From the NCBI GenBank assembly GCA_048940925.1, contig JBHLOC010000024.1, forward strand, positions 1-64,000: DNA of 64,000 bases, written 5' to 3'. Position 1 is the stretch's first letter. Every line of letters begins with the position of its first letter. The DNA comes from Promethearchaeota archaeon (lineage in GTDB: Archaea; Asgardarchaeota; Lokiarchaeia; Sigyniarchaeales; SOKP01). The position numbers and the translations under genes are program-made. The notes under the pieces were generated by a model. That model ran no database searches and was not told the origin of the DNA. It worked only from the letters and a program-made list of their open reading frames with translations. Positions 8,342 through 61,382 of this stretch are shown here, in pieces.

Positions 8342-8425
8342 AAAGATAATTATAACTAACCAATCAAATTGAATGAAAAATAGCGGATTTTTCGCTAATA
8401 GTAATGAAAAAATATTACTATTTTT

Positions 8426-8971: not shown

Positions 8972-9008
8972 TAAATTTAAATTAATGTAGATTCGAAAGT
9001 TGTTTTCC

Positions 9009-9344: not shown

Positions 9345-9587
9345 CTTTAAATCCCAAGTATCAATTATTCTTAATCTTTAAGAAATAAATTTTTCTAAAC
9401 CATATTCAAATTCTTCTCTATATAAATAATATCATTTATATATTTAAATATAATGAATATATAATATCATGATATCAAAAAATCGCAATATTTAAATATT
9501 ATAATATTATATCTTTATAATAATATACTATAATTATAAAATTTCTAAAAATAATCCGCAACACAAAACAAAAAAATAGGAGAATAA

Positions 9588-10079: not shown

Positions 10080-10308
10080 TAAAATATATATCAAAACATC
10101 TGTCAAAAAAATGGTGTTGGAATCGAAAATTTTTATGGATTATGATAAATCTAAGTCTAACTTCTATATTAACTACTTTATAGAAGATACAAAAACTGTA
10201 GTAGAAATGCCGATAAAAAAAGCTAATATGAATGAAGAAGATTGTATTATTTCGAGCAAATTTGATCTTTCTAATAAAGTATACTTAATTGATATAAATC
10301 AATATTAA
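10051..10308 (+). CDS. small hypothetical protein (true start may be the internal ATG, MVLESK)
   Basis: ORF fills the gap between Lrp and TFB on the same strand; no motif recognised. Confidence 0.4.
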   Translation: MVHVIVLKNNKIYIKTSVKKMVLESKIFMDYDKSKSNFYINYFIEDTKTVVEMPIKKANMNEEDCIISSKFDLSNKVYLIDINQY

Positions 10309-10331
10309 AATGACACTGCTGATTACAAAAA

Positions 10332-11246: not shown

Positions 11247-11338
11247 CTTTTCATTATTAAAAATAATCATATGGAATAAGATTAATATTTTGGTTTAATA
11301 AGATTAAGATATAAAAATGAAAATTTGATGATTTTTTC

Positions 11339-12706: not shown

Positions 12707-13191
12707 TACAATTCATTAATTCCTTTACATTTTGAATATTTGAAGTAAAATAATTGAACTTTTATTTTCTTCTATGTGAGTCTCTTGCGAAAAATGCTTT
12801 TATACTAATTGCAAATACATTTATTAAAATTAATATCTCAAAGTATAAAATGATTAATTTCTTTAAAAAAATTATTTAATATGTATCCCAATTTAAAAAA
12901 TTTAGATGTTAAAGTCTTAACTTTTTATTGAATCTAATTTTAGATCTAATAATTCTTCCCTTTCTTAAATTTAATAGAGCAATTTAATTTAGAATAAAAC
13001 GATAAAAAGTCTTTCTTGATATTCACAAATTTATTTATAAAATTTTCTTATGTTTCTAGAGTTTGAAAATCTAGATAAAATTCTCTTTTAGTTTATGTAA
13101 TATTAATTTGGAAGTTAAATTATATTATATTTTGTAAAGTGTATCCTTATCTAATCTTTTTGATGTACAATAATTAATAAACAATATCGAA

Positions 13192-13662
13192 ATGATGCGA
13201 TCTATTTTGTATAAGAAAATTTTAGTAGGTGTTGATGAATCACAAGATGCAATGGATGCAGTGAAAAAAGCCTTAGAACTTGAAAAAGGAGAAAATAGTG
13301 AAATAGTAGTGTTTCATTCTGTAGTGCACAATTTAGCGGAGGTTAGTCCAAGTTTTTCACTTGTTGGCCCTTCAAATGCTTCAGTATCTCTAATAATTCA
13401 TGAAGATAATGTAAATCAAGGGAAGAAAACTCTAAAGGAAGTAGAAAGATTATTTAAGGATGCCAATCTCGCTGTTGAGACGAGACTAATCTTTGATATT
13501 CCTCCTGAAGATTATATTAAAAATAAAATTGAAGAAGAAAAGTTTGATTTGGTAATATTAGGTTGTAAAGGAAAACATTCAAAACTAAAGCGTGTACTTT
13601 TGGGGACAATACCCACTAAAGTGATTAATAGTGCAGATTGCGATGTATTAATAGTAAGATAA
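13192..13662 (+). CDS. universal stress protein
   Basis: KILVGVD...DLVILG.KG...LLGTIPTKV...CDVLIVR. Confidence 0.93.
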   Translation: MMRSILYKKILVGVDESQDAMDAVKKALELEKGENSEIVVFHSVVHNLAEVSPSFSLVGPSNASVSLIIHEDNVNQGKKTLKEVERLFKDANLAVETRLIFDIPPEDYIKNKIEEEKFDLVILGCKGKHSKLKRVLLGTIPTKVINSADCDVLIVR

Positions 13663-13766
13663 GTTTAATAATTGGAGGATTAGAATAATCAAAAGTATGT
13701 TTTTTTGTATTTTTAATGTTTTACTAAATATGAATTAATAAATCACTAACCGAAGGAGAATTTTAA

Positions 13767-14882
13767 ATGAAAATTGGCAAGATTAAAGGAATTGTAATTT
13801 CATTACATCTTAGCACTTTACTTATAGTAGGATTAATAGGATTTTACGCTGCCGACTTATATGCCACTCTTGTTCCAGGAAGTAGCATTATTATTTTAAT
13901 CGTAGTTGGTCTAATCAATGGTTTAATCATTTTATTTTCAATTTTTCTTCATGAATTGACTCACTCTTTAATTGCTCAAAAATATGGATTAAAAGTTTCA
14001 GAGATAGAAATTTATCTCTTTGGTGGTGTTTCAAAAATAGAACAGGAACCACAAAATCCAAAGAGTGAGTTTATAATTTCTATTTTCGGTCCAATTTCTA
14101 GCTTAATTATAGGTGCTATTTTATTGATTTCTTTATTTTTAACACCATTTATTCCTTCACCTATTCTTAAGGTTACCCTATTCTATTCTGGAATATCAAA
14201 TATTGGATTAGGGATATTTAATTTAATTCCGGCATATCCTATTGATGGTGGAAGAGCATTACGAGCAATATTATGGAAAAAAAGACATGATATGCTTTCT
14301 GCAACAAAAACAGCAACAAGGGTTGGAAGTTTCATCGCATATGGTTTGATGGCTTATGGATTTTTGTCAATGTTTTTTTTTGGAATTCTTAATGGTTTAT
14401 GGTTTGTAATAATTGCTTCCTTTTTAAATAATCAGTCAAAACATGCATATCGTCAGACTTTAAACGAAATTACTTTATCGAAATTAAGTGCAAAAGAATT
14501 AAAAACGATGCCAGAAGTAGCAATTCCATTTAATAAGACCGTAAATGATGCTATTAAAAATTATTTTATTCCATATAAAAAAGTCTATTTTCCAGTTATA
14601 CAAGGAAGAAATGTGGTTGGAATTATACATCTTGAAGATATACAAAAAATTCCCATAACTCAGAGGAACGAAATTATTATTGGGTATTTAATGAAAAAAA
14701 TTTCACAATTTCCAAGAATAAGTCAAAATAACACAGGTAAGGATGCATTAAATAAATTAAGTCAAATGAAAGATAGACCACATTTAGTTGTTGTTGAAGA
14801 TATTAATCATAATGATATTATAGGCTTTATAGGAGAAGAGGATCTTTTAACCTCTTTGAAGTTTTTTCAAAATAATATTTAA
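13767..14882 (+). CDS. site-2 (M50) intramembrane zinc protease with CBS domains
   Basis: HELTH and NLIPAYPIDGGR; C-terminal CBS pair. Confidence 0.92.
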   Translation: MKIGKIKGIVISLHLSTLLIVGLIGFYAADLYATLVPGSSIIILIVVGLINGLIILFSIFLHELTHSLIAQKYGLKVSEIEIYLFGGVSKIEQEPQNPKSEFIISIFGPISSLIIGAILLISLFLTPFIPSPILKVTLFYSGISNIGLGIFNLIPAYPIDGGRALRAILWKKRHDMLSATKTATRVGSFIAYGLMAYGFLSMFFFGILNGLWFVIIASFLNNQSKHAYRQTLNEITLSKLSAKELKTMPEVAIPFNKTVNDAIKNYFIPYKKVYFPVIQGRNVVGIIHLEDIQKIPITQRNEIIIGYLMKKISQFPRISQNNTGKDALNKLSQMKDRPHLVVVEDINHNDIIGFIGEEDLLTSLKFFQNNI

Positions 14883-14898
14883 AATATACAGGTGGAAA

Positions 14899-15318
14899 AT
14901 TATATCACTTCAAATAAATAGAATAGTAAATCAAGGATACACATCAATAGATACTGTTTATCCACTGCAGAATAGAGGGTCAGCTATAACAATACTTATT
15001 ATACTTATAATCTCTCTCCTTATTTGGTTTGGCTGTGGCTTAATTTTAGCATACTGGGTTAAAAAAGATATGGAAAAAAAAAATTTAGAAAGACCGATAT
15101 TACCATTTGTAATTTTTTTTACAAGTATTATTGGATTTATAATTTACATAACAGTTAGATATGGTGAAGTAGAAATTTCTGAAAATGGTGAAAAATTCTC
15201 TAATTTCGACGATTTTATTAAAGAAGAGGAAGAATCAGAATTTAAAGATGAAATTGAAGAAGTCATCGAAGAAGAAATCGAGGACGATATAGAGAATTTT
15301 TTGGACGATTCTAAATGA
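14899..15318 (+). CDS. small membrane protein with PLDc_N-like motif and acidic tail
   Basis: Frame is open upstream of track ATG 15070 and encodes a TM helix plus AYWVKKD; GFIIYITVR follows. AGGTGG precedes ATT/ATA at 14899/14902. Confidence 0.7.
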   Translation: MISLQINRIVNQGYTSIDTVYPLQNRGSAITILIILIISLLIWFGCGLILAYWVKKDMEKKNLERPILPFVIFFTSIIGFIIYITVRYGEVEISENGEKFSNFDDFIKEEEESEFKDEIEEVIEEEIEDDIENFLDDSK

Positions 15319-15539
15319 ATTTAAAAGATGATTATGAAAATTAAAATTTTTGGTTGTAAGATATCCATAATATTTATCATATCGAAAGGTTATGATAATC
15401 TAATTAGAATTTAAAAATAAAATCAAAATTCAATAAAATATATTATATAATTTTAATATAAATATGAGAATTATTAATTTGACTTGTTATATAAGAGTGT
15501 TTCAATATTAATAATTAAAAAATAAGAGTTGAATATCAT

Positions 15540-16160
15540 ATGGAAAAGCTTTTTAACCTTAATTTAAAAGCACAAGAGAATATAATAATTGCTAAAAAAG
15601 AAAAACTAGTTGCATTGGAAATAAAAAAATTAGCAAAAAATCTTTTGAAAAAAGCGAAAAGTAGAGAGGAATTTGTTGAAAAAGAGTTAAATTTAGCGCA
15701 AGTAAGAAAGAAATTGGTGGATAATAATGAAAAATTATTAGAAAATAGGATTAAATCCAAGGAACTATTAAAATTCCCTGAAGAAGTAATTAATAATGAA
15801 AGGGATTTTATAAGGTATCATGAGAAGGTCGCTGAAAACCAATTAGAGATAGCAAAACATCATAAAGAAATAGCAAAGCTTGAAGAAAAGTTAGCTAAAA
15901 GCAAGATTTTACTAGCTAATTCTAAAATAGATGTTTCAAAAACTCGAATTAAATTAGGAAAACTGCAATTAAAATATGTAAAAGAAATTCAAAAAAAATC
16001 CTCCAAAAAAGCTTACTTAATAAAATCACTTTATAAACTAAAACAAGAAGACTTAGAACATCAATTGAAAGAGTTAATAGACAAAGAAAGAAATGTTAAA
16101 ATATTTCAAAACGATATTGCAAATTTAACATCTGAGCTTTCCCAGACATTAACAAAATGA
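15540..16160 (+). CDS. coiled-coil hypothetical protein
   Basis: K/E/L-rich heptads throughout. Confidence 0.7.
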   Translation: MEKLFNLNLKAQENIIIAKKEKLVALEIKKLAKNLLKKAKSREEFVEKELNLAQVRKKLVDNNEKLLENRIKSKELLKFPEEVINNERDFIRYHEKVAENQLEIAKHHKEIAKLEEKLAKSKILLANSKIDVSKTRIKLGKLQLKYVKEIQKKSSKKAYLIKSLYKLKQEDLEHQLKELIDKERNVKIFQNDIANLTSELSQTLTK

Positions 16161-16383
16161 AAAAATATAAAATTTAATCTAAGTAATGATTCTTAAAAAG
16201 ATACTAAATATTAAAGCAAAAAAGTATGAAACATAAGTATTAAGTAATAGTGACTAATTATTTCTTTTTATTAATTAATTATCTGTTCCTATTGGATTAA
16301 TGAGCTATTTTCTTAGGTAATTTTCTAATTCCATTTATAATTCTTAGCCATCACGTATTTATATTCGATTATTTTCCTATCAA

Positions 16384-17298
16384 ATGATAAAAATGTCAAC
16401 ATATAATAAATCAAGTTTAATTGGTGGTGGCGTAATACGAGGAATAGGATATTTCGTCTTTATTTTGGGGATTATAATATTGTTTGGTATCATAATTGCA
16501 TTGAATCTTTTTGGAATCCCACTTGATCTGGCTTTACTTATCGGAATTACTATAATGACTTTTGTAGGATTTATTTTTATGGGATTATATATTATACCTG
16601 AATGGATTAAAATTCCCACATTACTATTAGGAAAGTTTAAAAAAATGCGGGGTCCAGGAGTTATGTGGCTTTTCCCATTTATTTATCGGATACCATTTTC
16701 ACTTGATATGCGAATAATTACAACAACTTTTTCAGCGGAACAAACTTTGACAAAAGATAATGTACCTGTAAATGTTGATGCTGTATTATTTTGGAAAGTT
16801 ATAGACTCGTATAAAGCTTCGCTCCGTGTCCAAGATTATAAAACTGCGATTTCATGGGCAGCTCAGACTTCATTAAGAGATATAATTGGAAAGACGGAGT
16901 TGAGTCAGATGCTTGCAGGAAGAGAAGAGATTTCACATGATCTTGAAAGAATAATTGATGAGCGTACTGAAGAATGGGGGGTTAAGTCTATCTCAGTAGA
17001 AATTCGCGATGTGATAATTCCAACCGCATTACAAGATGCAATGAGTCGACAAGCACAAGCTGAAAGAGAACGTCAGGCGAGGGTTATTCTAGCAGGTTCT
17101 GAGGAACAAATAGCAAATAAATTTCTTAATGCTGCTCATATTTATGAAAGTGATGAGGTTGCTTTAAATTTAAGAGCAATGAACATTCTTTACGAAGGTA
17201 TGAAAGAAAAGGGAGCATGGATTATTGTTCCTTCAGATATGGTAAATATATTAGGGGGTAGATTCAAGCATCTTAAAGATTTCATAACAGATAAATAA
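16384..17298 (+). CDS. SPFH/stomatin-family protein
   Basis: TKDNVPVNVDAV, AQTSLRDIIG and QAQAERERQA. Confidence 0.93.
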   Translation: MIKMSTYNKSSLIGGGVIRGIGYFVFILGIIILFGIIIALNLFGIPLDLALLIGITIMTFVGFIFMGLYIIPEWIKIPTLLLGKFKKMRGPGVMWLFPFIYRIPFSLDMRIITTTFSAEQTLTKDNVPVNVDAVLFWKVIDSYKASLRVQDYKTAISWAAQTSLRDIIGKTELSQMLAGREEISHDLERIIDERTEEWGVKSISVEIRDVIIPTALQDAMSRQAQAERERQARVILAGSEEQIANKFLNAAHIYESDEVALNLRAMNILYEGMKEKGAWIIVPSDMVNILGGRFKHLKDFITDK

Positions 17299-17524
17299 TC
17301 TTCATTAAAATTATAACCCTAAAGATAAAATAAATATAAAAAATCCAATATGTCCTCATGAGTTATTACTTCTTTAGTTTAAAAAATGAAAAATTAATTT
17401 GATTTTAAATTAAAGTAAATGAAACAAATGAACACATCATTAATGATTTGTTAGCCATGTCTTTATAATTATAATTTCAGAATTTACTATTAGAACAAAA
17501 AAATTATCTAAGAAGTGGTTTAAA

Positions 17525-17980
17525 TTGTATAATAAAATTTTAGTTGGAATGGATAAATCGGATGATTCAATGCGCGCAGCAAAAAAAGCAATTGAATTTC
17601 AAAAAAGAGACAATAGTGAAGTGGTGGCTTTTCATTCTGTTCTACACCATTTTTCGGAGCTGAACTTAAGTCCTTTATATCCAACAGGAGCAAATGGTCT
17701 TATGGCATTAACTATACATGATGACTATATCAAGAGGGGTGAAGATATTTTAGAGGAAGTGGATACATTATTTAAAGAATCTAATGCAAAGGTAGAAACT
17801 CGGTTAATTTTTGATATTCCCCCAGAAGATTACATAGAAAAAACAGTTGAAGAGGAAGATTTTGATTTAGTAATTTTAGGATATAAGGGACATCATTCAA
17901 AACTAAACAGAATATTACTTGGAACTGTACCAGATAAAGTTATTAATAAAGTAGCTAGTGATGTTTTGGTTGTGCGATAG
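17525..17980 (+). CDS. universal stress protein (close paralogue of 13192..13662)
   Basis: USP motifs; shares VETRLIFDIPPEDYI with the first copy. Confidence 0.93.
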   Translation: MYNKILVGMDKSDDSMRAAKKAIEFQKRDNSEVVAFHSVLHHFSELNLSPLYPTGANGLMALTIHDDYIKRGEDILEEVDTLFKESNAKVETRLIFDIPPEDYIEKTVEEEDFDLVILGYKGHHSKLNRILLGTVPDKVINKVASDVLVVR

Positions 17981-18043
17981 AAATTTTTTAAATTTTACTT
18001 AAAATATAAATTTTTTCATTTTATCTTAGCGTATTTTTGATAT

Positions 18044-19123
18044 ATGAAATTAAAAATTAAGAAGGATATTATTATAATGAAAAAACACAATGTTGGGGAA
18101 CCACCAGGAGCCTTAGTATATACGGGGAAGAGAGATTATTTACAAACCAAGATTAAAATAATAGACTACAATAAGGAGGACTATAATCTATTAGAATTAG
18201 AAAGCATCGATCAAAACTTATCAAGTTTTGATAAATCAAGAATTAGATGGATTAATATAATAGGGTTGCCTCATATTGAAATAATTGAGGAAATAGGAAA
18301 TCAATTCAATCTACACGCTTTAGTTTTGGAAGATATCCTAAATACTAATCAAAGACCTAAAATAGAGAATTATGGAGAATATCTTTTCATAGTATTGAAA
18401 AATGTAGTTTATTTTGAAGAAATGAAAAGGTTTGAAATTGAGCAGGTTTGTTTAATCTTAGGAAAGAATTATGTAATATCTGTTCAAGAACATGAAGATG
18501 ATGTTTTTAACCCCATCATAGATAGGATTAAATATTTAAAAGGAAATATTCGAGATATGGGTCATGATTATCTTCTATATTCCTTAATTGACCTCATAAT
18601 TGATAATTACTTTATTATATTGGAAATTGTTGCTGAAAAAATAGAAAATATAGAAGATAGCTTAGTAGAAAATCCAGAACCAGAGATATTGAAACTTATA
18701 TATTCACTGAAAAGGACAATGTTAAATATACGCAATTCAATCTGGCCCACAAAAGAACTTATTACTAAATTGCAAAGAGAAAAATATCTATTAATAAGCG
18801 ACAATTTGGATTTATATCTCAGAGATCTCAATGATCATGTTTTTATAATAAATGATTTACTTGAAACTCAACGCGACGTCATTTTTGGCATGTTAGATAT
18901 GTATTTATCAAGCATGAATAATAAAATGAATGATATCATGAAAATTCTAACAATTATTGCAACAATATTTATACCTTTATCATTCTTGGTAAGCTTTTAT
19001 GGTATGAATTTTAAATATATACCTGAATTATCATATCCCTTTGCTTATCCTATATTAATTTCTATCATTATAACTATTGCAATAATTATGATACTATTTT
19101 TCAAGAAGAAAGGGTGGTTATAA
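18044..19123 (+). CDS. corA: CorA Mg2+/Co2+ transporter
   Basis: GEPPG, QRPKIE, YGMNF and KKKGWL. Confidence 0.95.
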   Translation: MKLKIKKDIIIMKKHNVGEPPGALVYTGKRDYLQTKIKIIDYNKEDYNLLELESIDQNLSSFDKSRIRWINIIGLPHIEIIEEIGNQFNLHALVLEDILNTNQRPKIENYGEYLFIVLKNVVYFEEMKRFEIEQVCLILGKNYVISVQEHEDDVFNPIIDRIKYLKGNIRDMGHDYLLYSLIDLIIDNYFIILEIVAEKIENIEDSLVENPEPEILKLIYSLKRTMLNIRNSIWPTKELITKLQREKYLLISDNLDLYLRDLNDHVFIINDLLETQRDVIFGMLDMYLSSMNNKMNDIMKILTIIATIFIPLSFLVSFYGMNFKYIPELSYPFAYPILISIIITIAIIMILFFKKKGWL

Positions 19124-48883: not shown

Positions 48884-49537
48884 TTATTTTCTCTCTTCAA
48901 TTTCCCTTAATTTTTTATCTTTTTCGAGTTTGTCCTTATAATATCTGATTGAATCTTTCAATTTGAGTGATTCTTCTTTCCAACCAATATTTTCAAATCT
49001 TTTTTTAGCTTTTTTGTAAATTTCTATTATTTTTTCATACGGACAATCAAACTGAAGAACATTATTTATTTTTATTTCTTGTTCGTATTCTTTTGCCATT
49101 CCTTCAGCATTACTAATCATATCAAATATTTCTTGAGATCTTTTAAGATTTTCTTCTTTTTTCTCTTCAAAATTTAAAAGCTGCTCTTCTTTATTAAGAG
49201 AGCGGATTACCGCTTTAATTGACTCTATTTCCTTGATTTTATGCAATTCTTCAAATTCTTTCTGTTTTTGCATTTTTTGAGCTTCAATTTCGCGTAATTT
49301 TTTATCTTTCTCTAATTTTTCATGATAAAATTTAATTTGTCCATTAAAAATTATGGTTTGCTCATTCCAACCACAACTAATGAGTATTTGTCTTATATTT
49401 TCATAGATTTTAATTATTTTAGGATAAGGACATGCAGTCCCAAATTTTCTTTTTTTAATGGCTAACTCATAATCTCTTGCCATTTTTTCTGCAATATCTA
49501 TCATTTTTGTAATTTGATCTTCAAATTTTGCATTCAT
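48884..49537 (-). CDS. helical protein of two ~80-aa repeats
   Basis: Twice AE.MA..YE...CPY.KII.IY...GW.E...KLEKDKKLREIE. Confidence 0.75.
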   Translation of the reverse strand: MNAKFEDQITKMIDIAEKMARDYELAIKKRKFGTACPYPKIIKIYENIRQILISCGWNEQTIIFNGQIKFYHEKLEKDKKLREIEAQKMQKQKEFEELHKIKEIESIKAVIRSLNKEEQLLNFEEKKEENLKRSQEIFDMISNAEGMAKEYEQEIKINNVLQFDCPYEKIIEIYKKAKKRFENIGWKEESLKLKDSIRYYKDKLEKDKKLREIEERK

Positions 49538-50540: not shown

Positions 50541-51086
50541 TTAAATATTCTTTTCAAATTTCAATATAGATCTTGTCAAAAATTCAAACATTTCTTTTAC
50601 ATTTTCTCCAGTTTTAGAAGAACATTCGAAATATTCGAGGAAGTCATATTTTTTTGAGAGTTTCTTAGCAGATCTTCGAGATACCATTCTTTCTTTAGAA
50701 AGATCTAATTTCCCACCGATCATTACTATTGGGATTTCCTTTTTATCATCCCCTAGACTTTCTTTAAATGCTAGTAGCCAATCATTTATATTCCTCAGAC
50801 TAGAATATGTAGTAAGATCAAACATAAAAATTCCTCCTGATGCCCCTCTTGTAAATGCAGAAAAAATAAATTTAAAACTTAATTCAGTTCCCAGAATCCA
50901 AATTTGAAGTGTTACTTCTGAAGAGCCTAGTATTACTTTCTTCACTGCAATATCAATACATACAGGTGGTTTAATTCTGTTGTTAAACATTTCAGGAGTA
51001 AAAGTGCGAATTAATGATGATTTTCCAACATTTTTTTCGCCAAAAATACATATTTTGAAAATTAAATCCTTGGGAATTTCTTGCAC
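50541..51086 (-). CDS. Rab-like small GTPase with degenerate G3/G4
   Basis: FKICIFGEKNVGKSS, LQIWILG (Asp missing), GGKLD and CSSKTGENV. Confidence 0.88.
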   Translation of the reverse strand: MQEIPKDLIFKICIFGEKNVGKSSLIRTFTPEMFNNRIKPPVCIDIAVKKVILGSSEVTLQIWILGTELSFKFIFSAFTRGASGGIFMFDLTTYSSLRNINDWLLAFKESLGDDKKEIPIVMIGGKLDLSKERMVSRRSAKKLSKKYDFLEYFECSSKTGENVKEMFEFLTRSILKFEKNI

Positions 51087-51455: not shown

Positions 51456-51998
51456 TTGTCAAAAGCAAAAAATGATAATGAATTCACTACAAAATTGAAA
51501 AATGAACAATTTCTTTATTTTGCCGAGAATTCTCGTTTAGGAATAGTATTAATCCAAAGAGGAAATTTAATATATTATAATAAAAAATTTGGGGAGATCT
51601 TTGGCTATTCTCAAGAAGAGATCTCAAAATGGAAAAAGAGAGAATTTTATAAAATCGTACATCCTGAAGATTTAAAACATTTAGTAGAAACATTTAAGAT
51701 TGAAAATGATAAAAGGACAATTACTATACAATTTAGAGGTATAAGGAAAGATAAAAAAATAATTAATATCGAGAATTATAATTGCCCAATTAAATATAAT
51801 AATAAGTTTGCAGTTCTATCCAGTTATATTCCAATAGAAAGAACTTTTAAAGAAGAACCCTATGCTCCTAAAATAAAAAAGACAAAAGAAGAAAAATTAA
51901 TTATGTTGAAATTTACGCCACTTACTGAAAAACTCCTAAGAGATAATAATGTAAAATTTGACATTTATAACCAGTCTTCATATCGAGAAGAAAATTAA
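51456..51998 (+). CDS. single-PAS-domain protein, copy 2
   Basis: Paralogue of 47907..48446 (WKKREFYKIVHP, IKYNNKFAVLSSYI, SYREEN). Confidence 0.85.
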   Translation: MSKAKNDNEFTTKLKNEQFLYFAENSRLGIVLIQRGNLIYYNKKFGEIFGYSQEEISKWKKREFYKIVHPEDLKHLVETFKIENDKRTITIQFRGIRKDKKIINIENYNCPIKYNNKFAVLSSYIPIERTFKEEPYAPKIKKTKEEKLIMLKFTPLTEKLLRDNNVKFDIYNQSSYREEN

Positions 51999-52171
51999 CG
52001 CTTATTTTCCCGTTTTTTATTCGAGAGTTCTTCAAAATAAATATTATATCGTTTCTTAGGATCAAGAACTTTATGCTTAATCAACGCTCGTGGGATATAT
52101 ACTATTGTATCTGGTCCCATTGAAGATAATTTAGCATTCTCTAGAGTAAAAATTTTCTTCTCCTTATTCAT
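51995..52171 (-). CDS. 58-aa AbrB/SpoVT-like protein, copy 2
   Basis: Not in track: MNKEKKIFTLENAKLSSMGPDTIVYIPRALIKHKVLDPKKRYNIYFEE... Confidence 0.8.
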   Translation of the reverse strand: MNKEKKIFTLENAKLSSMGPDTIVYIPRALIKHKVLDPKKRYNIYFEELSNKKRENKR

Positions 52172-52578
52172 ACATTATCGCATTAAATTTTACTTTAAAT
52201 GTTTTGTATTATATTTTATTGAACATAAACAATTTCTCAATAAAGATTATTATTTTATCAAACCAATTTCCATTACAAATTCGCCTAACATTATACTTAA
52301 TGTGTTACGTATATTTAATCTTTTATATCTCTATCAAGATAGTATAACTTTATTCATAATAAAGAGTTTGATTCTAAAATATTAGTAGATATTAAATTTA
52401 TTTTATTTAAAGCGACAGAATTTGTGAATATTTCACTTTTCGGGGAGTTTACCACAGGTTTTTATAATTTCGTGCCCCTTTTCATTCTATTATTCTTTCT
52501 TTTTCTTAACAATTTTTGACCATCCATAAATGTTATCGATGTCAGAATAAAAGTAAAAATTTAAATTCTGTTGGGTGA

Positions 52579-52618
52579 TCTAGATATCTATATAGGAATA
52601 CCTATAAAACACCCTATA
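52579..52618. promoter_or_regulatory. triple TATARR-N4-YYTATA array
   Basis: TCTAGATATCTATATA, TATAGGAATACCTATA and TATAAAACACCCTATA at 12-bp period. Confidence 0.65.
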
Positions 52619-52707
52619 AATAAAGACATTTATTTTAAAAAAATTAGAAATAAATAATTTTAAGGATGGAAAGTACAAAAAAGATACTACAACAAACCAA
52701 AAAATAA

Positions 52708-52831
52708 GACTCCTGCCTATCGACCCTGAATTTTTATCTTATGGTGGTGTAAAATTTCTACACGCTGTTTCCGCCCTCCTCTTCCTATTGTATCTTTTTG
52801 ACGCATTCTTGCGTCTATTTTGGCAGGAGTC
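52708..52831. other. GC-enriched element with 10-bp terminal inverted repeat and two internal hairpins (candidate ncRNA or MITE-like element)
   Basis: GACTCCTGCC...GGCAGGAGTC; GTGTA-N7-TACAC; GACGCA-TTCT-TGCGTC. Confidence 0.45.
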
Positions 52832-53002
52832 ACCTTTAAATTATTGATCACTTGCTTTTATCTTTATGAATTAGATAATATAATGAAAATAGAGATTGAA
52901 AAAGCAATGAAAACATATTCAATTTCTTTATTGATACTTTTTTATATTTGAAAAGCTCTATATATTACTAAATTTGAAATGTTTGTCCATATATCTTAAA
53001 AA

Positions 53003-55237
53003 TTAACTAAAATATTTTTTAATTAAAAATTCAAGGCTTTCCCACTTTTCAATAACACTACAAGTATCTTTTATATTTTTAACTAAAACCTTATACTCAT
53101 TATCAAATTCCTTGACTATAGCTTCAAGTTTTCTTTGAATTATTAATAGATCTTCTTTAACTACAAGTGCAAAAATAATATCATTTGTATTGTTGGTTTG
53201 AAAAATTATTTTACGATCTCCATGATCTACTGTCCTTATCTGTTTTTCGCCTTGAGCAACTAGTTTTAATATTGATAACATTCCAATTATTCCACCTGAA
53301 ATTAAAACAGAGTCATATTTCTCTTTTGTGCCTTCTACAAAAGGATGATCATAAAGCAGAATTCCTGATTTATAAATAATATAAATATAAATTAATGAAT
53401 TGATCCAATTTTTTAAAGGTAATCTTATAATAAATTTAGCTCCTTTATCTTTTCCTTTTGATTCAAAAATAATTTGACCTCCATGTAGATCAATGATTTC
53501 ATTTGAAAATTGTAATCCAAGTAAAGATTCTTGCGAATTCAATAAATTTCTTTTTAAATAGATTCTATTTTTTTCTAGTTCTGTTAATCCAACACTATTA
53601 TTTTTTATAGTTATTTGAGCAAAATTATTACTTTTTTGTAAACATATTGATATATCAACTTTCTTAGAAGTATTTTTTATTATATACAGTAATAAATCTT
53701 TAATCACGTGCACCATTCTAACCTTATCGACCTCTGAGTACAAATCTTCTGATATATCTAATGCAAGATTAAATTTTCGCTTATTTATATTACTCATTAT
53801 ATCATCTATCGATTCTCTAATTATCTCGATTATACTCTCTGTTTGCTTTTTTAATTTTAATTTATCAGATTCAATTCTAGAAATATCTACAATTCTTTCA
53901 ACCAAATTTATTGATTTTTCTCCTCCACTTTTAATTAATTCTAACAGTTGTATCGCATTTTGATCTAATTTATCTTTATATGAGTTTAAAAGAATTTTGG
54001 ATGCATTAGACATAACATTTAATGGTGATTTCAATTCTTTTGAGGTTTGGGCAGTTAATTCCTTTTTAACTTGATCCAATTTCCTTAACCTCTCATTTTC
54101 TTCTTTAATAATCTTTTCTGCTAATTTCTTTTCAGTTATATCCTGCACAATAACTTGAATATATTTTTTACTCCCAATTTTTAATGATGAGAAAAAACAT
54201 TCAACCCAAGCTATATTATAGTCTTCATCATGATACATAAAATCTATAATTTCACTTAAATCATAATCAAAAGCATTTTGAATTATTTCTTTAACTGAAT
54301 CAAGTTGGTTTTCATTTATTTGGAAAATATCAAAAAAAGATTTACCTTTTAATTCCTCTTTAGGTTTATTTAAATAGATTTTAGCAAGGCTATTGCAATC
54401 ATGAACATTTTTGTTCAAATCTAATAAAATTATAGGATAGGGAAAGTTTTCAACCAGATTTCGAAATTTTTCTTCGATATTTTTACGATCTGTTATATCC
54501 CTTATTATATCTATTATTGCTTGTTGACCGTTAAAATTAAATGTCGGAGTACAATTATATTCAAAATATTTTTTCTCATATGTCATAGGATCTATAAATT
54601 CTTTTTCAAATCTAATAACATCATAATTATTTGTTAATTTATTAAAAGTACAATGTTCACACACATTTTCTCTATTCATTAAAACATTATAACAAATATT
54701 TCCACTAAGATGAGATCCAAATTCTTCTTCTGCTTTTCTATTCAGGTATAAAATTCTGTGATCTTTCGAGATGACTATAATTGAATCATTAACATTTGAT
54801 AATATTAAATTTAATTTTGCTTCTGATTCTTTGATTTCTTGCTCGATTTTCTTACGTTCGGTTATATCTCTTCCAATTTTAACTATCTCCTCTATCTTTC
54901 CATCTTTAGTCTTGAGTGGGTACGCTAAAAGTTCCACATACGCTTCTTCTCCGTTTATATGATGAGTATGGATAACCTCACAAAATTGCCCAGTTCTTAA
55001 TACACTCTCAACTGGACATTTACATTCTGGTGGTCTACAAATCTTTTTTCGATTGTGAGTTAATTTATAACATTTTCTTCCTATAGCCTCTTTTTTAGAC
55101 ACACCATATTTTAAACAAAAAGTTTTGTTTACATCTATTATTCTATAATTTTTATCTAAAACCGTTATTTCATCGAATATAGAATCAAAAATTAACGTTA
55201 AATAATCAATGTCTTGAATTCTTTTGTTTTCCAGCAT
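53003..55237 (-). CDS. PAS-PAS-PAS pseudo-histidine kinase with C-terminal longin-like domain
   Basis: H-box SKELKSPL (His replaced by Lys); degenerate N/G1/G2 boxes; tail YIIYKSGILLYD...LISGGIIG...IRTVDHGDRKIIF. Confidence 0.85.
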   Translation of the reverse strand: MLENKRIQDIDYLTLIFDSIFDEITVLDKNYRIIDVNKTFCLKYGVSKKEAIGRKCYKLTHNRKKICRPPECKCPVESVLRTGQFCEVIHTHHINGEEAYVELLAYPLKTKDGKIEEIVKIGRDITERKKIEQEIKESEAKLNLILSNVNDSIIVISKDHRILYLNRKAEEEFGSHLSGNICYNVLMNRENVCEHCTFNKLTNNYDVIRFEKEFIDPMTYEKKYFEYNCTPTFNFNGQQAIIDIIRDITDRKNIEEKFRNLVENFPYPIILLDLNKNVHDCNSLAKIYLNKPKEELKGKSFFDIFQINENQLDSVKEIIQNAFDYDLSEIIDFMYHDEDYNIAWVECFFSSLKIGSKKYIQVIVQDITEKKLAEKIIKEENERLRKLDQVKKELTAQTSKELKSPLNVMSNASKILLNSYKDKLDQNAIQLLELIKSGGEKSINLVERIVDISRIESDKLKLKKQTESIIEIIRESIDDIMSNINKRKFNLALDISEDLYSEVDKVRMVHVIKDLLLYIIKNTSKKVDISICLQKSNNFAQITIKNNSVGLTELEKNRIYLKRNLLNSQESLLGLQFSNEIIDLHGGQIIFESKGKDKGAKFIIRLPLKNWINSLIYIYIIYKSGILLYDHPFVEGTKEKYDSVLISGGIIGMLSILKLVAQGEKQIRTVDHGDRKIIFQTNNTNDIIFALVVKEDLLIIQRKLEAIVKEFDNEYKVLVKNIKDTCSVIEKWESLEFLIKKYFS

Positions 55238-55251
55238 TTTTTCGCTTTTTT

Positions 55252-56838
55252 TTAATAGATATTTATATTTATTCCATTTAGAATATCCTTATTAATATTG
55301 GGAAAGCTAAGTTCAATTAGGATGATAAACTTACTTCCTTCTCGATAATCTCCTTTAGCCCTATCCTCAACCCAAATTTGTCCATTATATTCTTCTATTA
55401 TTTTTTTTACCAATGATAGCCCCAATCCCATGTTAATGCTATTTCTCACTTTTTTTTCTGCACGCAGAAAAATTTTTTCTTTCATATTATCTGGTACCCC
55501 CATCCCATTATCAATAAATTCTAATTTGAGATATTTAATGTTATTTTTTTGTTCTTTAGAGATCTTGATAATTATTTCTATTATTTGATGGTTGTTATGT
55601 CTTATAGCATTTATTAAAATATTTTCAAATACGTCAAGTAAGAGGTCGTTTGCTTTAACATAAAATTTTTTGTTAGGGGGATAAACTTGAATATTAATTT
55701 TTTTACCTTTGTAACTTTTGATTACATACTGAATTGAACGTTTTAATACTTCATTAACTTCGATTGATGTTATAGATAATCCAGTTTCTTCAATCTCAGA
55801 AAGTTTTCTTACATTAGAAACTAAATTTGCCCCTCTGATAACCTGCTCTATAGCAATATTTATCAATTCATCTACATTTTCATTTCCTTTAAAATTTTTT
55901 AAATATAAAGATAGAAGCTCCAATGATGATTCTATACTTTGAAAAATATTATTAATGTCGTGAGCAAAGAGATCCTTATAGAAATTCGCACGGTTATAAG
56001 CTTCGCGATATTTTTTTTCTGAATCAATTAAAATTTTTTCCGCATTTTTCCTATAGGTTATATCTCTTACAATATCTACTATTGCTGGTTGGCCATTAAA
56101 GTTTTCAATTGGTGTACATCTGTATTCATAAAATTTATTATCATTAGTTAAAGGTTTGATAATTTTAGATTCAAAACTAATAACTCTATTATTTGTATTA
56201 ATAAATTTAGTAAAAGTACAATTTTCACATACATTATCTCTATTCATTAGAACATCATAACAAATATTTCCACTAAGATGAGATCCAAATTCTTCTTCTG
56301 CTTTTCTATTCATGTATAAAATTCTGTGATCTTTTGAAATGACTATGATGGAATCATCCACATTTGATAATATTGTATTCATATTTGATTCGGATTGTTT
56401 AATTTCTTGCTCAATTTTCTTGCGTTCGGTGATATCTCTTCCAATTTTAACTATCTGCTTTATCTTACCATCTTTTGTCTTGATTGGATAGGCTAAAAGT
56501 TCGACATACATTTCTTCACCATTTATATGATGAATATGAATAGTCTCACTGAATTGCCCAGTTTTTAATACATCTTCAACGGGACATTTACATTCTGGTG
56601 GTCTACAAATCTTTTCTCGGTTGTGAGTTACCTCATAACATTTTCTTCCTATTGTTTTATCTCTAGAAACACCATATTTTAAGCAAAAAGTTTTATTTAC
56701 ATCCATTATTCTATAATTTTTATCTAAAACTGTTATTTCATCAAATATAGAGTCAAAAATTGATAATAAAGGATCCTCTTCTTGATCTTTTTGTTTTTTT
56801 CTAATAATGTTCACCTTTTTTCTTAAAAAAACTATCAT
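55252..56838 (-). CDS. PAS-PAS sensor histidine kinase
   Basis: H-box AHDINN, N-box ENILINA, G1 DNGMG and G2 GLGL. Confidence 0.92.
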   Translation of the reverse strand: MIVFLRKKVNIIRKKQKDQEEDPLLSIFDSIFDEITVLDKNYRIMDVNKTFCLKYGVSRDKTIGRKCYEVTHNREKICRPPECKCPVEDVLKTGQFSETIHIHHINGEEMYVELLAYPIKTKDGKIKQIVKIGRDITERKKIEQEIKQSESNMNTILSNVDDSIIVISKDHRILYMNRKAEEEFGSHLSGNICYDVLMNRDNVCENCTFTKFINTNNRVISFESKIIKPLTNDNKFYEYRCTPIENFNGQPAIVDIVRDITYRKNAEKILIDSEKKYREAYNRANFYKDLFAHDINNIFQSIESSLELLSLYLKNFKGNENVDELINIAIEQVIRGANLVSNVRKLSEIEETGLSITSIEVNEVLKRSIQYVIKSYKGKKINIQVYPPNKKFYVKANDLLLDVFENILINAIRHNNHQIIEIIIKISKEQKNNIKYLKLEFIDNGMGVPDNMKEKIFLRAEKKVRNSINMGLGLSLVKKIIEEYNGQIWVEDRAKGDYREGSKFIILIELSFPNINKDILNGININIY

Positions 56839-57245: not shown

Positions 57246-57911
57246 TTACTTCAATTGTTGTATTTTTTTTATAATTTCTTTAAGGTATAAATCTCCCATC
57301 CCTAAACGAACAGTATTAGAAAGAATTAATGTAATTATAAGTGATACATTACTAATTTGAATAAATTGGGAAAAAATTTTTTGATCATTTTCTAGAACTA
57401 AAAAATATTTTTTCACCATTATTAGATTTTTCTCATTTCTTACTTCGAATTCTCTGATCGTGTGAAATAATGTTTTCAATGGTAAAGATGAGTATAGAAC
57501 TTTTCCTTCTAATGTAAAGAGAGAACTTCCAAGAATATTATTTCCATCTACATAGTTTCTTAAAAGCCTAATTAAATCTTGAGAAAACGATAACATATTA
57601 AAAAATGAATTTTTATTTTTCTCCTGTGTTCCTTTAAATTCTAAGGATTCAATTGTATCATCATAAAATTCTATTCTCGATAATTCAAAATCAACTTTTT
57701 GATATCCTCTAACTTTAAAATTTTTATCTACAAATAATTGAAAGGTGTGTTTACAAACTAATCCAGAAGGGACAGAAACTGTAGTTAATCGCTTATTTTG
57801 GTTTATTATTTGAAATGGAATTTTCAAAATTTTCTTTTGATTACATAAGGGACACTGTATTAGAACATTTTGAGTATAATTTTCGTAACCAATATTTTCT
57901 TTATTAATCAA
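57246..57911 (-). CDS. Zn-ribbon plus roadblock/longin-like domain protein
   Basis: CPLC...CKH..VDKNFKVRGYQ; C-terminal ILGSSLFTLEGKVLYSSLP. Confidence 0.7.
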   Translation of the reverse strand: MINKENIGYENYTQNVLIQCPLCNQKKILKIPFQIINQNKRLTTVSVPSGLVCKHTFQLFVDKNFKVRGYQKVDFELSRIEFYDDTIESLEFKGTQEKNKNSFFNMLSFSQDLIRLLRNYVDGNNILGSSLFTLEGKVLYSSLPLKTLFHTIREFEVRNEKNLIMVKKYFLVLENDQKIFSQFIQISNVSLIITLILSNTVRLGMGDLYLKEIIKKIQQLK

Positions 57912-57940: not shown

Positions 57941-59401
57941 TTAAATTTTATTATGAGTTTTACTTAGATCAAGAAATTTTTCTTCAAAATACAATTCCTT
58001 TTCCTTCACATAATACTGACAATTTTGCTTTTCTAATCCAGTTACATAAATATTTTTTCTGGTACACCAATAAAGCCCTGTTGGATTTGGATTATATGCA
58101 TATTTACAATCCGAAGAAATAAACTCCTTTTTTTCTTCCCTCCAATTAAAAAATTCAAACAATTTTTGGCAGTGTCTTCCAGAGTTTTTATCAAATGGAT
58201 AACTCATTATACAATGAGTTCCAGTTCCCGTTTTTCTAAGTTTTACAGGAACAAATCCTAATCTAGTAAAAAATTTTAATTTATATGGAATACATTTCGC
58301 AACTAATAAGAAGACATTAAATTTATCATATTTTTCTAGTTCATGGTGAAACATAAATTCAACAAATTTTGATCCTAATCCCATTCTCCTATAATTCTCT
58401 TGAACTTCTAATGTGTCGAAATAAAAAATATACGTATTGTTATGTTTAAATAAAAATATTAAATTTAAACAGCCAATAATTCTATTAGTACCATTTATGA
58501 TATAATGTGAGTGATTCAAATAACCAAAATGCCAAATCCCTGGATTTTTAATATTTTCAAAAAATTTCTGCGGTAAATTTTCTCTTCGAACCATTTTAAA
58601 TATATAATCTTTTAAGAGTTTTCTCAAATGAGGTGATAGTTTACCAAAGATTTTTTCATTTCGTTCCTTTAAACGCCATAATGGAATTATGTTCTTTTCA
58701 ATTATTGGATATAACTCATTCCTTTCGATGACACTCTCTAAAGCTGACGAAACATAATCTTCTAAACCAAAATGTTGATCTTTTAACATATTTATAAGGA
58801 TCTCTACTGCTTTTTTATCACCTATACTTCCTAATGCTTCAATAATGTTTTTTTTAATTAGGAATTTCAAATTTTTTTTTGACAGCATTTTAATTAACTT
58901 ATCCACACATCGATAATCACCTATTATTCCAAGAGTCCATATAATATCTTTCTTAATCCAATCGTTTTCTCTTTCCAATAGGTTTAGTAAAATTTCTACT
59001 GAATGATTATCCCCAATATAAGCAAGTGCTAATATAACACTTTTCCTAATATAAATATTATTGTCTTTTAATAATTCAAATAAGTCTTTTAAAGTATTAT
59101 TATCTCCAATTCTCCCCAATCCTTCAATGGCATATTGTCGAATTCTTACTTTAATATCCTCATTAGAAGCGATTTTAAGTAATAATTTGACATTATCTTT
59201 TCCAATTTTCCCAATTATTTTTGGAACTAAATATGAAGACCCTTTAAAGTAAGTGTTTAACAAAGAAATAAGAGTTTCATAATTGCCATTTTTTTCTAAA
59301 GCTAAAACTGCCTTTCTTCTAATGCTAGGATCATCATGATTTAAATTTTCAAGTAAAACTTCATTAATTATTCTTTCATTAATCTTCTTTTTCCCCAACA
59401 T
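57941..59401 (-). CDS. HEAT-repeat / GNAT acetyltransferase / three-Cys domain fusion
   Basis: PBS-lyase-type HEAT repeats (ALGSIGD), GNAT motif A VQENYRRMGLGSK and FFTRLGF, C-terminal C-x13-C-x14-C. Confidence 0.85.
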   Translation of the reverse strand: MLGKKKINERIINEVLLENLNHDDPSIRRKAVLALEKNGNYETLISLLNTYFKGSSYLVPKIIGKIGKDNVKLLLKIASNEDIKVRIRQYAIEGLGRIGDNNTLKDLFELLKDNNIYIRKSVILALAYIGDNHSVEILLNLLERENDWIKKDIIWTLGIIGDYRCVDKLIKMLSKKNLKFLIKKNIIEALGSIGDKKAVEILINMLKDQHFGLEDYVSSALESVIERNELYPIIEKNIIPLWRLKERNEKIFGKLSPHLRKLLKDYIFKMVRRENLPQKFFENIKNPGIWHFGYLNHSHYIINGTNRIIGCLNLIFLFKHNNTYIFYFDTLEVQENYRRMGLGSKFVEFMFHHELEKYDKFNVFLLVAKCIPYKLKFFTRLGFVPVKLRKTGTGTHCIMSYPFDKNSGRHCQKLFEFFNWREEKKEFISSDCKYAYNPNPTGLYWCTRKNIYVTGLEKQNCQYYVKEKELYFEEKFLDLSKTHNKI

Positions 59402-59476: not shown

Positions 59477-59926
59477 TCAATGTAATGAACTTATATTACC
59501 TAAACTTTCATTTTGCTCATGATCGGAAAAATATTTTGATAATTTTCGAATCGTTTGATTTAATTCAAATAGAATTACACCTAAGTTTAAATAAATTGGA
59601 AATATAACTGAAAGCCTTATATCGTATGTGACTGATTCAAGAACAATGATAAATCCGTCATTATCTAGTTGATCCCCTGCTTGAATTAAAACCTGTTTTA
59701 TTTTATTGTTTTCTTTTAATATCTCGACACAGTTTTCAGCCAAAGAGACAATGCCAGCACTCAATGCACTAATAGATTGATGATAATTTTCATCTTCGTT
59801 GAAATTTATGCGATCTACTGTAATTAAAAAACCATCTTCAGTAAATAAGGTGGAACTCACTATACCTGTCCTATCTCTAAACGATTTTAAAATATTTTGG
59901 ATTTCTTTTTCCTGCATACTAACCAT
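59477..59926 (-). CDS. roadblock/LC7 (MglB-like) protein
   Basis: STLFTEDGFLI, ISALSAGI and NLGVILFE. Confidence 0.85.
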   Translation of the reverse strand: MVSMQEKEIQNILKSFRDRTGIVSSTLFTEDGFLITVDRINFNEDENYHQSISALSAGIVSLAENCVEILKENNKIKQVLIQAGDQLDNDGFIIVLESVTYDIRLSVIFPIYLNLGVILFELNQTIRKLSKYFSDHEQNESLGNISSLH

Positions 59927-60590
59927 CTTGGACGACTACCTCCTTTTCACCAATATTATTTTCATTCGTTTCATTACTTACAAATTTTAGTATTTGTATA
60001 ATCGCATCTTTTATCCCTATATTATATTTCGCAGATCCTTTGAATACTCGTTCACCTATCATATTTGAAATCATATCACAACCATGGTAATCATCTCTAT
60101 CTGATTTATTTGCAATAATCCTCATGGGAATAGTATTTCCTAAATTAACTTTAGTTTCTTCTAAAATTACTAATGCATTTCCAATATTCGCTAAATCACA
60201 ACCATCTATTAAAAAGATTACACCATCACTTCCTTTTGCTAAAATTTTTCGAACAGCAGAAAATTGAATTTGACCAGGACATCCTTTTAATTCAAGTTCA
60301 TTTATAAACCACCCTAAATATTCATCTCTATCTCTTAAATATTCACTCTCACTCATTATTACTCCTTCCGTTTCATAATTTAAATTTGGTCTCGCCCATA
60401 TCAGTCTTCCTAAATCAAAACCTGTAGTAGTATGCGTTTTATCTTCGTCATATGCTTTATGTAATTCTTTTTCAACATGGATTGCCTTCCCATCAAGAGT
60501 GTGCACTAAGGTACTTTTTCCAGAATTAAAGAATCCTGTTATGAAAATTTTTACCTTTTTGTCATTCAATTTATAATTCCCACATCCCAA
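59919..60590 (-). CDS. MglA/CvnD-type small GTPase
   Basis: GFFNSGKST, TTTGFDLG, GCPGQ, NKSD and SAK; overlaps the roadblock gene. Confidence 0.88.
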   Translation of the reverse strand: MGCGNYKLNDKKVKIFITGFFNSGKSTLVHTLDGKAIHVEKELHKAYDEDKTHTTTGFDLGRLIWARPNLNYETEGVIMSESEYLRDRDEYLGWFINELELKGCPGQIQFSAVRKILAKGSDGVIFLIDGCDLANIGNALVILEETKVNLGNTIPMRIIANKSDRDDYHGCDMISNMIGERVFKGSAKYNIGIKDAIIQILKFVSNETNENNIGEKEVVVQDG

Positions 60591-60905: not shown

Positions 60906-61382
60906 ATGGCTAATTATAAACAATTATCTGATTTTTTAAATGCCATGACTGGTGTAACTGTTGAATCTTTATTAAATATGGGACTAAATATTCCCTTAAT
61001 TTGGAATGAATTTGCGAATTCATTTAATAAAGATGGAGTCAAGGGCTTTCTAAAGGATTGTGGATTGGTGATCGATGGCTCTGATGTTAAATCGATAACA
61101 GAAGATTTTGCAAAAAAAGTAAAGGAGGTTGGTTTTTGTCAAAGGGCAAATATCATAGAAGCTAATGACAATAAAGTTGTTTTAGATCTTGGAGAATGTG
61201 TTTTAGCTCCTGTAACAAAAGTTATAAGAGGTACTGATTTGAACATGATACCTCCTTGTCCAATGATGGCTCTTTTATATGGTACGATAGAAACAAAAAC
61301 AGGAAAAAAGGGATCTATTGAGAAAGCAGAGTGGAAACCTGAAGAAAATACAACAATTTTTACATTGAATTTGGAGGGATAA
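60906..61382 (+). CDS. V4R / methanogen-output-domain-like small-ligand or metal-binding protein
   Basis: GFC...LDLGECVL...PPCPM..L pattern. Confidence 0.6.
   Translation: MANYKQLSDFLNAMTGVTVESLLNMGLNIPLIWNEFANSFNKDGVKGFLKDCGLVIDGSDVKSITEDFAKKVKEVGFCQRANIIEANDNKVVLDLGECVLAPVTKVIRGTDLNMIPPCPMMALLYGTIETKTGKKGSIEKAEWKPEENTTIFTLNLEG

Follow-up and report, generated by a model that had tools for sequence, protein, structure and literature searches.

Caulobacter DivL is a DHp/CA scaffold that lacks the phospho-acceptor His and is used for protein-protein signaling. In the conservons of Streptomyces, a sensor kinase-like protein (CvnA) is grouped with a roadblock protein (CvnB), a DUF742 protein (CvnC), and a GTPase (CvnD). 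Asgard archaeal genomes carry dozens of small GTPases, longin proteins, and roadblock proteins. Longin and roadblock dimers serve as GTPase platforms, and Tran et al. reported that Asgard GTPases generally share no operons with roadblock or longin genes, which makes the matching of GTPases to regulators difficult (PMC10933270). The available text of the preprint by Liu et al. states that Asgard archaea have many proteins in which an NPRL2-like longin is fused to two-component domains (bioRxiv 10.1101/2020.10.19.343400), and the general kind of protein described here is therefore already known; a keyword literature search on longin histidine kinases in Asgard archaea nonetheless returned no paper. 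Here, we analyze a 64,000-nucleotide (nt) stretch from a Promethearchaeota archaeon (positions 1 to 64,000 of contig JBHLOC010000024.1, assembly GCA_048940925.1; this whole stretch is the window). It encodes a pseudo-histidine kinase of 744 amino acids (aa) with a C-terminal longin tail, next to an intact sister histidine kinase of 528 aa. What is added to the known architecture is a family-wide count of lost residues, synteny in 16 of 18 loci, concerted evolution of PAS1, a fold class for the longin, and the occurrence of the tail in REC-fused and nonkinase contexts.

A conserved kinase scaffold has lost its catalytic residues

The 744-aa protein has the domain order PAS1-PAS2-PAS3, DHp-like hairpin, CA-like domain, and longin. 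Its homology to histidine kinases is clear in Pfam, with three PAS domains (PAS_4, E value of 2.6e-30), HisKA at 30.8 bits, and HATPase_c at 41.9 bits, the last two above gathering cutoffs of 26.9 and 26.4 bits, respectively. We aligned the DHp-CA region with 43 canonical kinases from the homology search and 75 relatives of the 744-aa protein. The phospho-acceptor position, 400, is H in 43/43 canonical kinases and K in the 744-aa protein (codon at 54038-54040). In the N box, positions 514 (N in 42/43) and 518 (N in 43/43) have become D and Y. In G1, positions 546 (D in 43/43) and 548 (G in 43/43) have become N and S, and in G2, position 572 (G in 43/43) is L; position 570, G in 40 to 43 of the 43 canonical kinases, is E. 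Only positions 550 and 574, each G in 43/43, are left of the G1 and G2 residues, and a complete Mg-ATP motif is absent. The residues after the His site (E-L-K-S-P-L) are still HisKA-like. From these replacements, we infer that the 744-aa protein cannot autophosphorylate. The altered boxes (SKELKSPL, KDLLLYII, KNNSVG, and ESLLGL) are all present as read in an earlier prediction made from the sequence alone (here, the original prediction), which also held that the partner kinase keeps its H, N, G1, and G2 boxes. It does: the 528-aa protein (two PAS domains, HisKA, and HATPase_c in Pfam) has H293, N406/N410, D443-x-G-x-G447, and G471-x-G473, as do five orthologs.

The loss extends to a whole family. 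The hairpin, dead CA domain, and longin form a 365-aa module present in 76 clusters that cover the last 365 aa at 46 to 90% identity. Between one and three PAS domains precede it, joined in four clusters (P0033, P0035, P0052, and P0063) by an N-terminal REC domain. Source labels are Promethearchaeota, Lokiarchaeota, Thorarchaeota, and Hermodarchaeota, to which a scan of species-representative genomes adds Hodarchaeota. A variable sensor on a fixed 365-aa module is thus a conserved Asgard family. Across the 76 clusters, the His site is E in 67, K in 6, and A in 1 (the three commonest residues) and never H, so the strain-specific decay that would be expected had orthologs kept the His is not what is seen. 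Conservation is likewise missing at the N-box, G1, and G2 positions, and about a third of the members have a deletion that removes part of the ATP-lid region. A survey of His loss against longin fusion, suggested with the original prediction, gave a uniform answer: in 15 species-representative loci with the longin tail, the His site is E, K, or D, never H, while tail-less matches keep H.

The ratio of nonsynonymous to synonymous substitution rates (dN/dS) against two orthologs is 0.21 to 0.39 in each of the PAS, DHp-CA, and longin parts, indicating purifying selection on the module in its entirety. A decaying duplicate of the sister kinase, with no function of its own, would likewise have lost all catalytic motifs and lie beside a paralog. 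The reading frame is intact, however, the same module recurs in all those clusters at 46 to 90% identity, and the kinase core is not derived from the sister kinase (24% identity). Given this conservation and the dN/dS values, the dead core is kept by selection, and we regard decay as next to impossible.

The tail has the predicted fold of a longin

Pfam matched nothing in the last 137 residues alone. An AlphaFold2 model of this tail, built on an 82-row alignment, has a mean predicted local distance difference test score (pLDDT) of 95.3 and the order beta2-alpha-beta3-alpha2 (DSSP: E8-15, E20-25, H36-54, E62-64, E69-74, E80-86, H91-107, and then C-terminal helices). In this model, the order of strands and helices is that of a longin and not that of a roadblock. 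The best Foldseek matches were Bet5, Trs23, and TRAPPC1 (probability of 1.00). Exhaustive structural comparison with VIA-align gave Z scores of 10.4 to 13.3 over 115 to 131 residues for Fuzzy, Mon1, Ccz1, TRAPPC1, Bet5, VAMP7, Sec22, AP sigma subunits, and SRX, among them the first longin of Fuzzy (Z of 13.3), Mon1 (11.6), TRAPPC1 (11.4), and the VAMP7 longin (11.4). The solved Lokiarchaeota roadblock-longin 8yqg reached a Z of 10.6. Longins of the GTPase-activating protein (GAP) class ranked lower, C9orf72-SMCR8 with a Z of 8.2 and Lst4 with 8.5, versus 11 to 13. A sequence profile of the tail run against the PDB matched Trs23 (E value of 0.007) and TRAPPC1, and subthreshold Pfam matches among 82 members went to Sybindin (16/82), Fuz_longin_1 (9/82), and Intu_longin_1 (8/82), none of them from the tail of the 744-aa protein itself. 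As modeled, the tail is a longin domain, which bears out the longin-like tail of about 130 aa first proposed, and its fold and profile matches lean toward the exchange-factor class (TRAPP/Mon1/Fuzzy) rather than the folliculin/NPRL2 class. Conserved residues are W611, G625, S647-G648, G652, D671-H-G-D-R675, F679, F689, F711, and W732.

Searching 1.8 billion representative proteins with residues 608-744 returned 306 representative clusters. The domain is mostly C-terminal in host proteins of very different length classes, and stand-alone forms of 120 to 160 aa exist. The larger tail-bearing proteins that we sampled have no two-component domains; some are membrane protein-like and some end in a winged-helix domain. 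Among P0130, P0146, P0198, P0207, and P0243 are proteins of 540 to 630 aa without Pfam domains, one of them weakly transporter-like, and giants of 1000 to 2600 aa in which a wHTH-PRTase-associated domain follows the tail.

PAS1 evolves in concert between the two kinases

The genes for the sister kinase and the pseudokinase are co-oriented on the minus strand with 14 nt between them. Over their first ~250 residues, the proteins are 77% identical (192/250; E value of 3e-137), as expected from the near-identical first two PAS domains in the original prediction, whereas their kinase cores are only ~24% identical. The twin likeness is thus confined to the sensor, and the description of the 744-aa protein as a dead copy of its neighbor holds for PAS1-PAS2 and not for the kinase core, which is not that of a recently killed copy.

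Sensor units are PAS1-PAS2 in the kinases, PAS1-PAS2-PAS3 in three-PAS pseudokinases, and PAS1-PAS3 or PAS2-PAS3 in two-PAS pseudokinases. At the four loci where both proteins have PAS1, the within-locus identity of this domain is 82, 82, 81, and 75%, in 4/4 cases higher than between orthologs of different loci. In a PAS1 tree, same-locus pairs group for the window (support of 89/91) and for L003 (94/92). The pattern was looked for in PAS2 and was not seen there. By these comparisons, PAS1 evolves in concert between the two kinases, presumably by gene conversion, which argues that both must read the same signal or pair through PAS1.

PAS1 of both kinases (54851-55189 and 56419-56757) carries the Cys/His set FC..KC....H.....C....C.C, followed by H.H. 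This set and the C-x10-C-x2-C motif of PAS2 (54488-54820) are conserved in 10/10 sequences compared, and the motifs suggest metal or redox sensing.

The pseudokinase gene closes a conserved GTPase/roadblock array

The co-oriented array of the window runs in the order GTPase, roadblock protein, HEAT-GNAT protein, 221-aa protein, active kinase, and, last, pseudokinase-longin (Table 1). Such an array, led by a GTPase and a roadblock gene and closed by the pseudokinase-longin gene, was found in 16 of the 18 loci with enough flank (C82, the contig of this window, C51, L003, L005, L010-L015, L019, L022, L025, L026, L028, and L030). The middle genes vary (GNAT, HEAT, or a TFIIB paralog), and a divergent array encoding two roadblock proteins, a coiled-coil protein, and a HisKA-REC protein recurs. 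An active sister kinase occurs only beside two- and three-PAS pseudokinases; single-PAS members in the GTPase locus (L010, L011, L012, L025, and L026) have no sister kinase and have a TFIIB paralog upstream. The stretches noted for the TFIIB paralogs are 6411-7313 in L010 (with a 4-nt overlap with the pseudokinase gene), 9100-9996 in L012, and 5871-8400 in L013. L013 and L015, close relatives of the window locus, carry TFIIB genes in the array, and the window locus carries none.

The GTPase that leads the array has the motifs GFFNSGKS/T (G1), KGxPGQ (G3), NKSD (G4), and SAK (G5) and is 67 to 91% identical across loci, with 67 to 85% identity between Asgard groups. KGxPGQ replaces DxxG at G3, an insert of ~40 residues separates switch I from G3, and databases carry a shorter, 216-aa start. 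Against the PDB, it matched Rab21 (4e-13) better than MglA (~2e-8), the latter on a par with Sar1. The name MglA, under which this gene was originally predicted, was not confirmed: all three matches are modest and about equal, only the PGQ of G3 recalls MglA, and "MglA-like" is therefore a loose label. The first 8 nt of the 149-aa roadblock gene are also the last 8 nt of the GTPase gene. The 221-aa family has five further copies in the genome, and the C-terminal half of its ESM Atlas model resembles roadblock models, a lead only; in L001, a homolog lies directly upstream of a pseudokinase-longin gene outside the GTPase locus.

The genome has 21 REC matches. None lies inside the window, and the statement that no response regulator is found there is correct; the nearest REC belongs to the HisKA-REC regulator that ends the divergent array just past the window edge. 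Because this regulator is part of the conserved locus, the pseudokinase system cannot be regarded as set apart from a phosphorelay, as it first seemed. Galperin et al. list a ribbon-helix-helix-HisKA-REC architecture in Lokiarchaeum. Beyond the window on C82 (65364-67292 and 69484-71385), HisKA-REC genes converge in two places on a soluble triple-PAS intact kinase, a duplicated cassette adjoining the locus.

The Rab-like GTPase at 50541-51086, offered with the MglA/roadblock locus as a candidate target, is real. An ortholog lies 260 nt downstream of the pseudokinase gene in L013, the closest relative, and a copy lies near the C51 locus; none was found in the other loci examined. Synteny thus favors the GTPase/roadblock locus (59477-60590), the Rab-like gene being nearby only in the closest relatives. 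The gene-free 1-kb gap downstream of the pseudokinase gene holds a GC-rich stretch (52708-52831) with a perfect 10-bp terminal inverted repeat, and an Rfam scan of 51900-53100 gave no match at an E value of ≤0.1.

The whole locus occurs again, in diverged form, on contig C51 of the same genome (~3900-18600). This second copy comprises pseudokinase-longin, kinase, GNAT, roadblock, GTPase, divergent array, and HisKA-REC, and also counterparts of the Ras-like GTPase and the 217-aa protein encoded at 48884-49537; its proteins are 44 to 81% identical. As the assembly is listed with 8.4% contamination, this copy could stem from a second organism. L025 (JAUVAE010000024.1) is labeled Candidatus Komeilibacteria bacterium and carries the Asgard locus (GTPase, roadblocks, TFIIB, and pseudokinase-longin); this contig is most likely mis-binned.

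Table 1. Features of the locus, in positions of the window (contig positions where stated).
Feature	Position	Strand	Description and basis
Ras/Rab-like GTPase, 181 aa	50541-51086	-	Secondary candidate partner; Pfam Ras, 3e-33
Pseudo-histidine kinase with longin tail (P0001), 744 aa	53003-55237	-	Open reading frame and translation; Pfam
Longin domain, aa 608-744	53006-53416	-	AlphaFold2 model, Foldseek and VIA-align matches, profile matches, conservation
Degenerate CA (HATPase_c-like) domain, aa 461-607	53417-53857	-	N-box/G1/G2 residues replaced
DHp-like (HisKA) hairpin, aa 380-460	53858-54100	-	K400 for phospho-acceptor His; E401-L-K-S-P405-L406 kept
PAS3, aa 257-366	54140-54469	-	Missing from sister kinase; common to orthologous pseudokinases
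PAS2, aa 140-250	54488-54820	-	Conserved C-x10-C-x2-C motif
PAS1, aa 17-129	54851-55189	-	Cys/His-rich; 82% identical to sister kinase PAS1
Intact sister histidine kinase (P0002), 528 aa	55252-56838	-	PAS1-PAS2, DHp with H293, complete CA
221-aa protein	57246-57911	-	Asgard-only family; C-terminal half roadblock-like
HEAT-repeat and GNAT acetyltransferase protein	57941-59401	-	Variable middle gene of array
Roadblock/LC7-like protein, 149 aa	59477-59926	-	Pfam Robl_LC7, E value of 1.8e-4, below cutoff
Asgard small GTPase, 216-223 aa	59919-60590	-	First gene of array
158-aa protein	60906-61382	+	First gene of divergent array; RdxA_C-like features in ESM Atlas (lead only)
Roadblock/LC7 protein, 143 aa	61463-61894	+	Pfam Robl_LC7, 3.6e-9; 70-92% identical in other loci
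Roadblock-like protein, 151 aa	62000-62455	+	Pfam Robl_LC7, E value of 0.0017, below cutoff; conserved in other loci
Coiled-coil protein, 536 aa	62516-64000 (within window)	+	Ends at contig position 64126
HisKA-REC regulator	Contig 64447-65325		End of divergent array; starts 447 nt beyond window; REC at 64945-65274

Possible output through a longin pair and its alternatives

In the reading that we favor, the kinase core has been retained as a dimer that transmits signals. What the PAS domains sense would travel along the hairpin to two paired longin domains. Like the longin and roadblock dimers of TRAPP, Mon1-Ccz1, MglB, and folliculin, this pair would act as a platform, binding or regulating the roadblock proteins encoded nearby and/or a small GTPase, for which the conserved one at 59919-60590 is the likeliest candidate. 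Because its PAS1 is kept alike by gene conversion, the sister kinase would read the same stimulus through that domain; it would probably phosphorylate the HisKA-REC regulator of the divergent array, and a single stimulus would in that case reach a phosphorelay as well as a GTPase switch. The longin pair might serve as an exchange factor, a GTPase activator, or an adaptor, with fold and profile matches leaning to the first of these. We judge the chances of this reading to be evenly balanced. A link to small-GTPase signaling is plausible because the pseudokinase ends a conserved array led by a GTPase and a roadblock gene; of the original proposal, a two-component sensor rewired to small-GTPase signaling, the GTPase side gains from the longin fold and the synteny, but the phosphorelay is still in the locus. 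The existence of REC-fused family members, of other proteins with the tail, and of stand-alone tails is consistent with the module acting as an output.

Several points weigh against this reading. The GTPase link is guilt by association, from synteny together with fold, and loci L001/L002 and L024 have ample flanks and no GTPase array. Longins also have GTPase-unrelated roles, such as SNARE regulation (PMC10933270), and the GTPase might in truth be regulated by the four or five other roadblock-type proteins at the locus, to which the longin would simply dock. Sequence does not reveal which way the signal flows. The loss of ATP binding is judged from residues alone, and the second N-box Asn is kept in 15/76 family members. 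A single-sequence AlphaFold2 model of residues 380-744 has a mean pLDDT of 37.7, too low to place the tail on the kinase core. Two longin tails modeled in complex with the locus GTPase (score of 0.08, mark of 0.32) speak neither for nor against binding.

The wiring could also run in reverse, as in DivL, a His-less kinase homolog that works in this way. The longin would then be the input, docking either to a roadblock complex or to a single nucleotide state of the GTPase, and the pseudokinase would tune the sister kinase through PAS1 or hairpin contacts, with phosphorylation of the HisKA-REC protein and transcription as the output. The 14-nt gap places the two proteins translationally close, PAS1 is homogenized in 4/4 loci, as expected if PAS1 domains pair or read the same ligand, and a HisKA-REC gene is among the conserved members of the locus; since E-L-K-S-P-L stays HisKA-like, there may still be a surface on which a receiver can dock. 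Modulation of a kinase cannot, however, be the general role of the family, because the single-PAS members have no sister kinase, and cores that are ~24% identical disfavor hairpin heterodimers. We consider reverse wiring unlikely, though it is a serious competitor. Alternatively, the tail could be independent of GTPases: a dimerization or adaptor domain linking the sensor to some partner, such as the roadblock proteins or the coiled-coil protein, or else a domain that binds a small ligand. Its occurrence on many unrelated N-terminal regions, in putative membrane proteins and giant winged-helix proteins among others, would fit, as would the GTPase-unrelated functions of longins (PMC10933270) and the several roadblock-type proteins available as partners. 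The most faithful companion of the pseudokinase, with the roadblock gene, is nevertheless the small GTPase, 67 to 91% identical across loci, and in structure the tail comes closest to longins that bind GTPases, those of TRAPP, Mon1-Ccz1, and CPLANE, making this alternative quite improbable.

A variant of the favored reading places the longin in the folliculin/NPRL2/SMCR8 class, where it would stimulate GTP hydrolysis through R675. Liu et al. do call the longin that is fused to two-component domains "NPRL2-like" in the text available (bioRxiv 10.1101/2020.10.19.343400), and R675, a candidate arginine finger in the strongly conserved loop of the DHGDR hairpin, is kept in 69/76 members. A GP motif marks GAP-type longins (PMC12290439), and G-x-P at the beta1-beta2 turn of 29/76 members resembles it; G-P itself, looked for before the second strand, occurs in none of the 76, and the 744-aa protein has G625-I-L there. 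The lower Z scores of C9orf72-SMCR8 and Lst4 and the profile matches to the Sybindin and Fuz/Intu families also speak against the variant, and we think it has a small chance of being right.

The favored reading can be extended to the locus as a whole, which would be an archaeal counterpart of roadblock/longin GTPase-regulating assemblies (Ragulator/TRAPP-like), gated by PAS domains via a dead kinase scaffold. The assembly would combine a single longin tail with a small GTPase of its own, a coiled-coil scaffold, and four or five proteins of the roadblock type, and the sister kinase would carry the same stimulus to the DNA-binding HisKA-REC regulator and so drive a phosphorelay. This extension is tentative, and we would sooner expect it to fail than to hold. 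If true, it would give a defined Asgard GTPase-regulator pairing and a bridge between bacterial-style and eukaryote-style signaling.

Comparison with known systems

For experiments on how Asgard GTPases are regulated, the locus is a good starting point. It is useful because Asgard GTPases otherwise rarely share operons with roadblock or longin genes, and here the genes for a pseudokinase-longin, one highly conserved GTPase, and several roadblock proteins stay linked in genomes labeled Loki, Thor, Hod, and Hermod, which gives a short, testable list of proteins. If the coupling is real, it documents the joining of prokaryotic sensing to GTPase switches in the lineage ancestral to eukaryotes.

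The fusions of Liu et al. are alike in joining a longin to prokaryotic two-component domains in the same group of organisms. The text available of that preprint gives the architecture alone, with its NPRL2-like label, and contains no mention of the family-wide loss of the His and ATP residues, the homogenized PAS1, the GTPase/roadblock/HisKA-REC locus, or the likeness to TRAPP, Mon1, and Fuzzy. With the architecture already reported in outline, the value of the present work is tempered: it is neither the first sighting of a longin/two-component fusion nor a demonstrated mechanism.

The TRAPP core longins Bet5 and Trs23 (TRAPPC1/C4) and the first longins of Mon1-Ccz1 and Fuzzy-Inturned are the best structural and profile matches of the tail and form dimeric GTPase-binding platforms (PMC10933270). 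Sequence identity is only 10 to 16%; those proteins are heterodimeric, stand-alone subunits of large complexes, whereas the Asgard longin is the tail of a homodimer-type sensor scaffold.

With MglA-MglB of Myxococcus and Thermus and with the conservons, the locus shares a clustered small GTPase and roadblock gene and, with the conservons, also a histidine kinase-like sensor. The Asgard sensor is, in contrast, soluble, catalytically dead, and longin-fused, and the locus GTPase matches MglA weakly, like Sar1, and Rab21 better. A Streptomyces-type conservon was rejected because a genome-wide search for DUF742 (PF05331) found nothing; the completeness listed for this genome is 100%. DivL shares with the 744-aa protein a His-less DHp/CA scaffold; it differs in keeping its ATP-binding domain and in having no longin output, while the 744-aa protein has also lost the nucleotide-binding residues. 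In the Asgard family, the histidine kinase scaffold has outlasted the loss of all its chemistry over hundreds of millions of residue-changes of divergence, apparently as a transmission device for a eukaryote-type domain.

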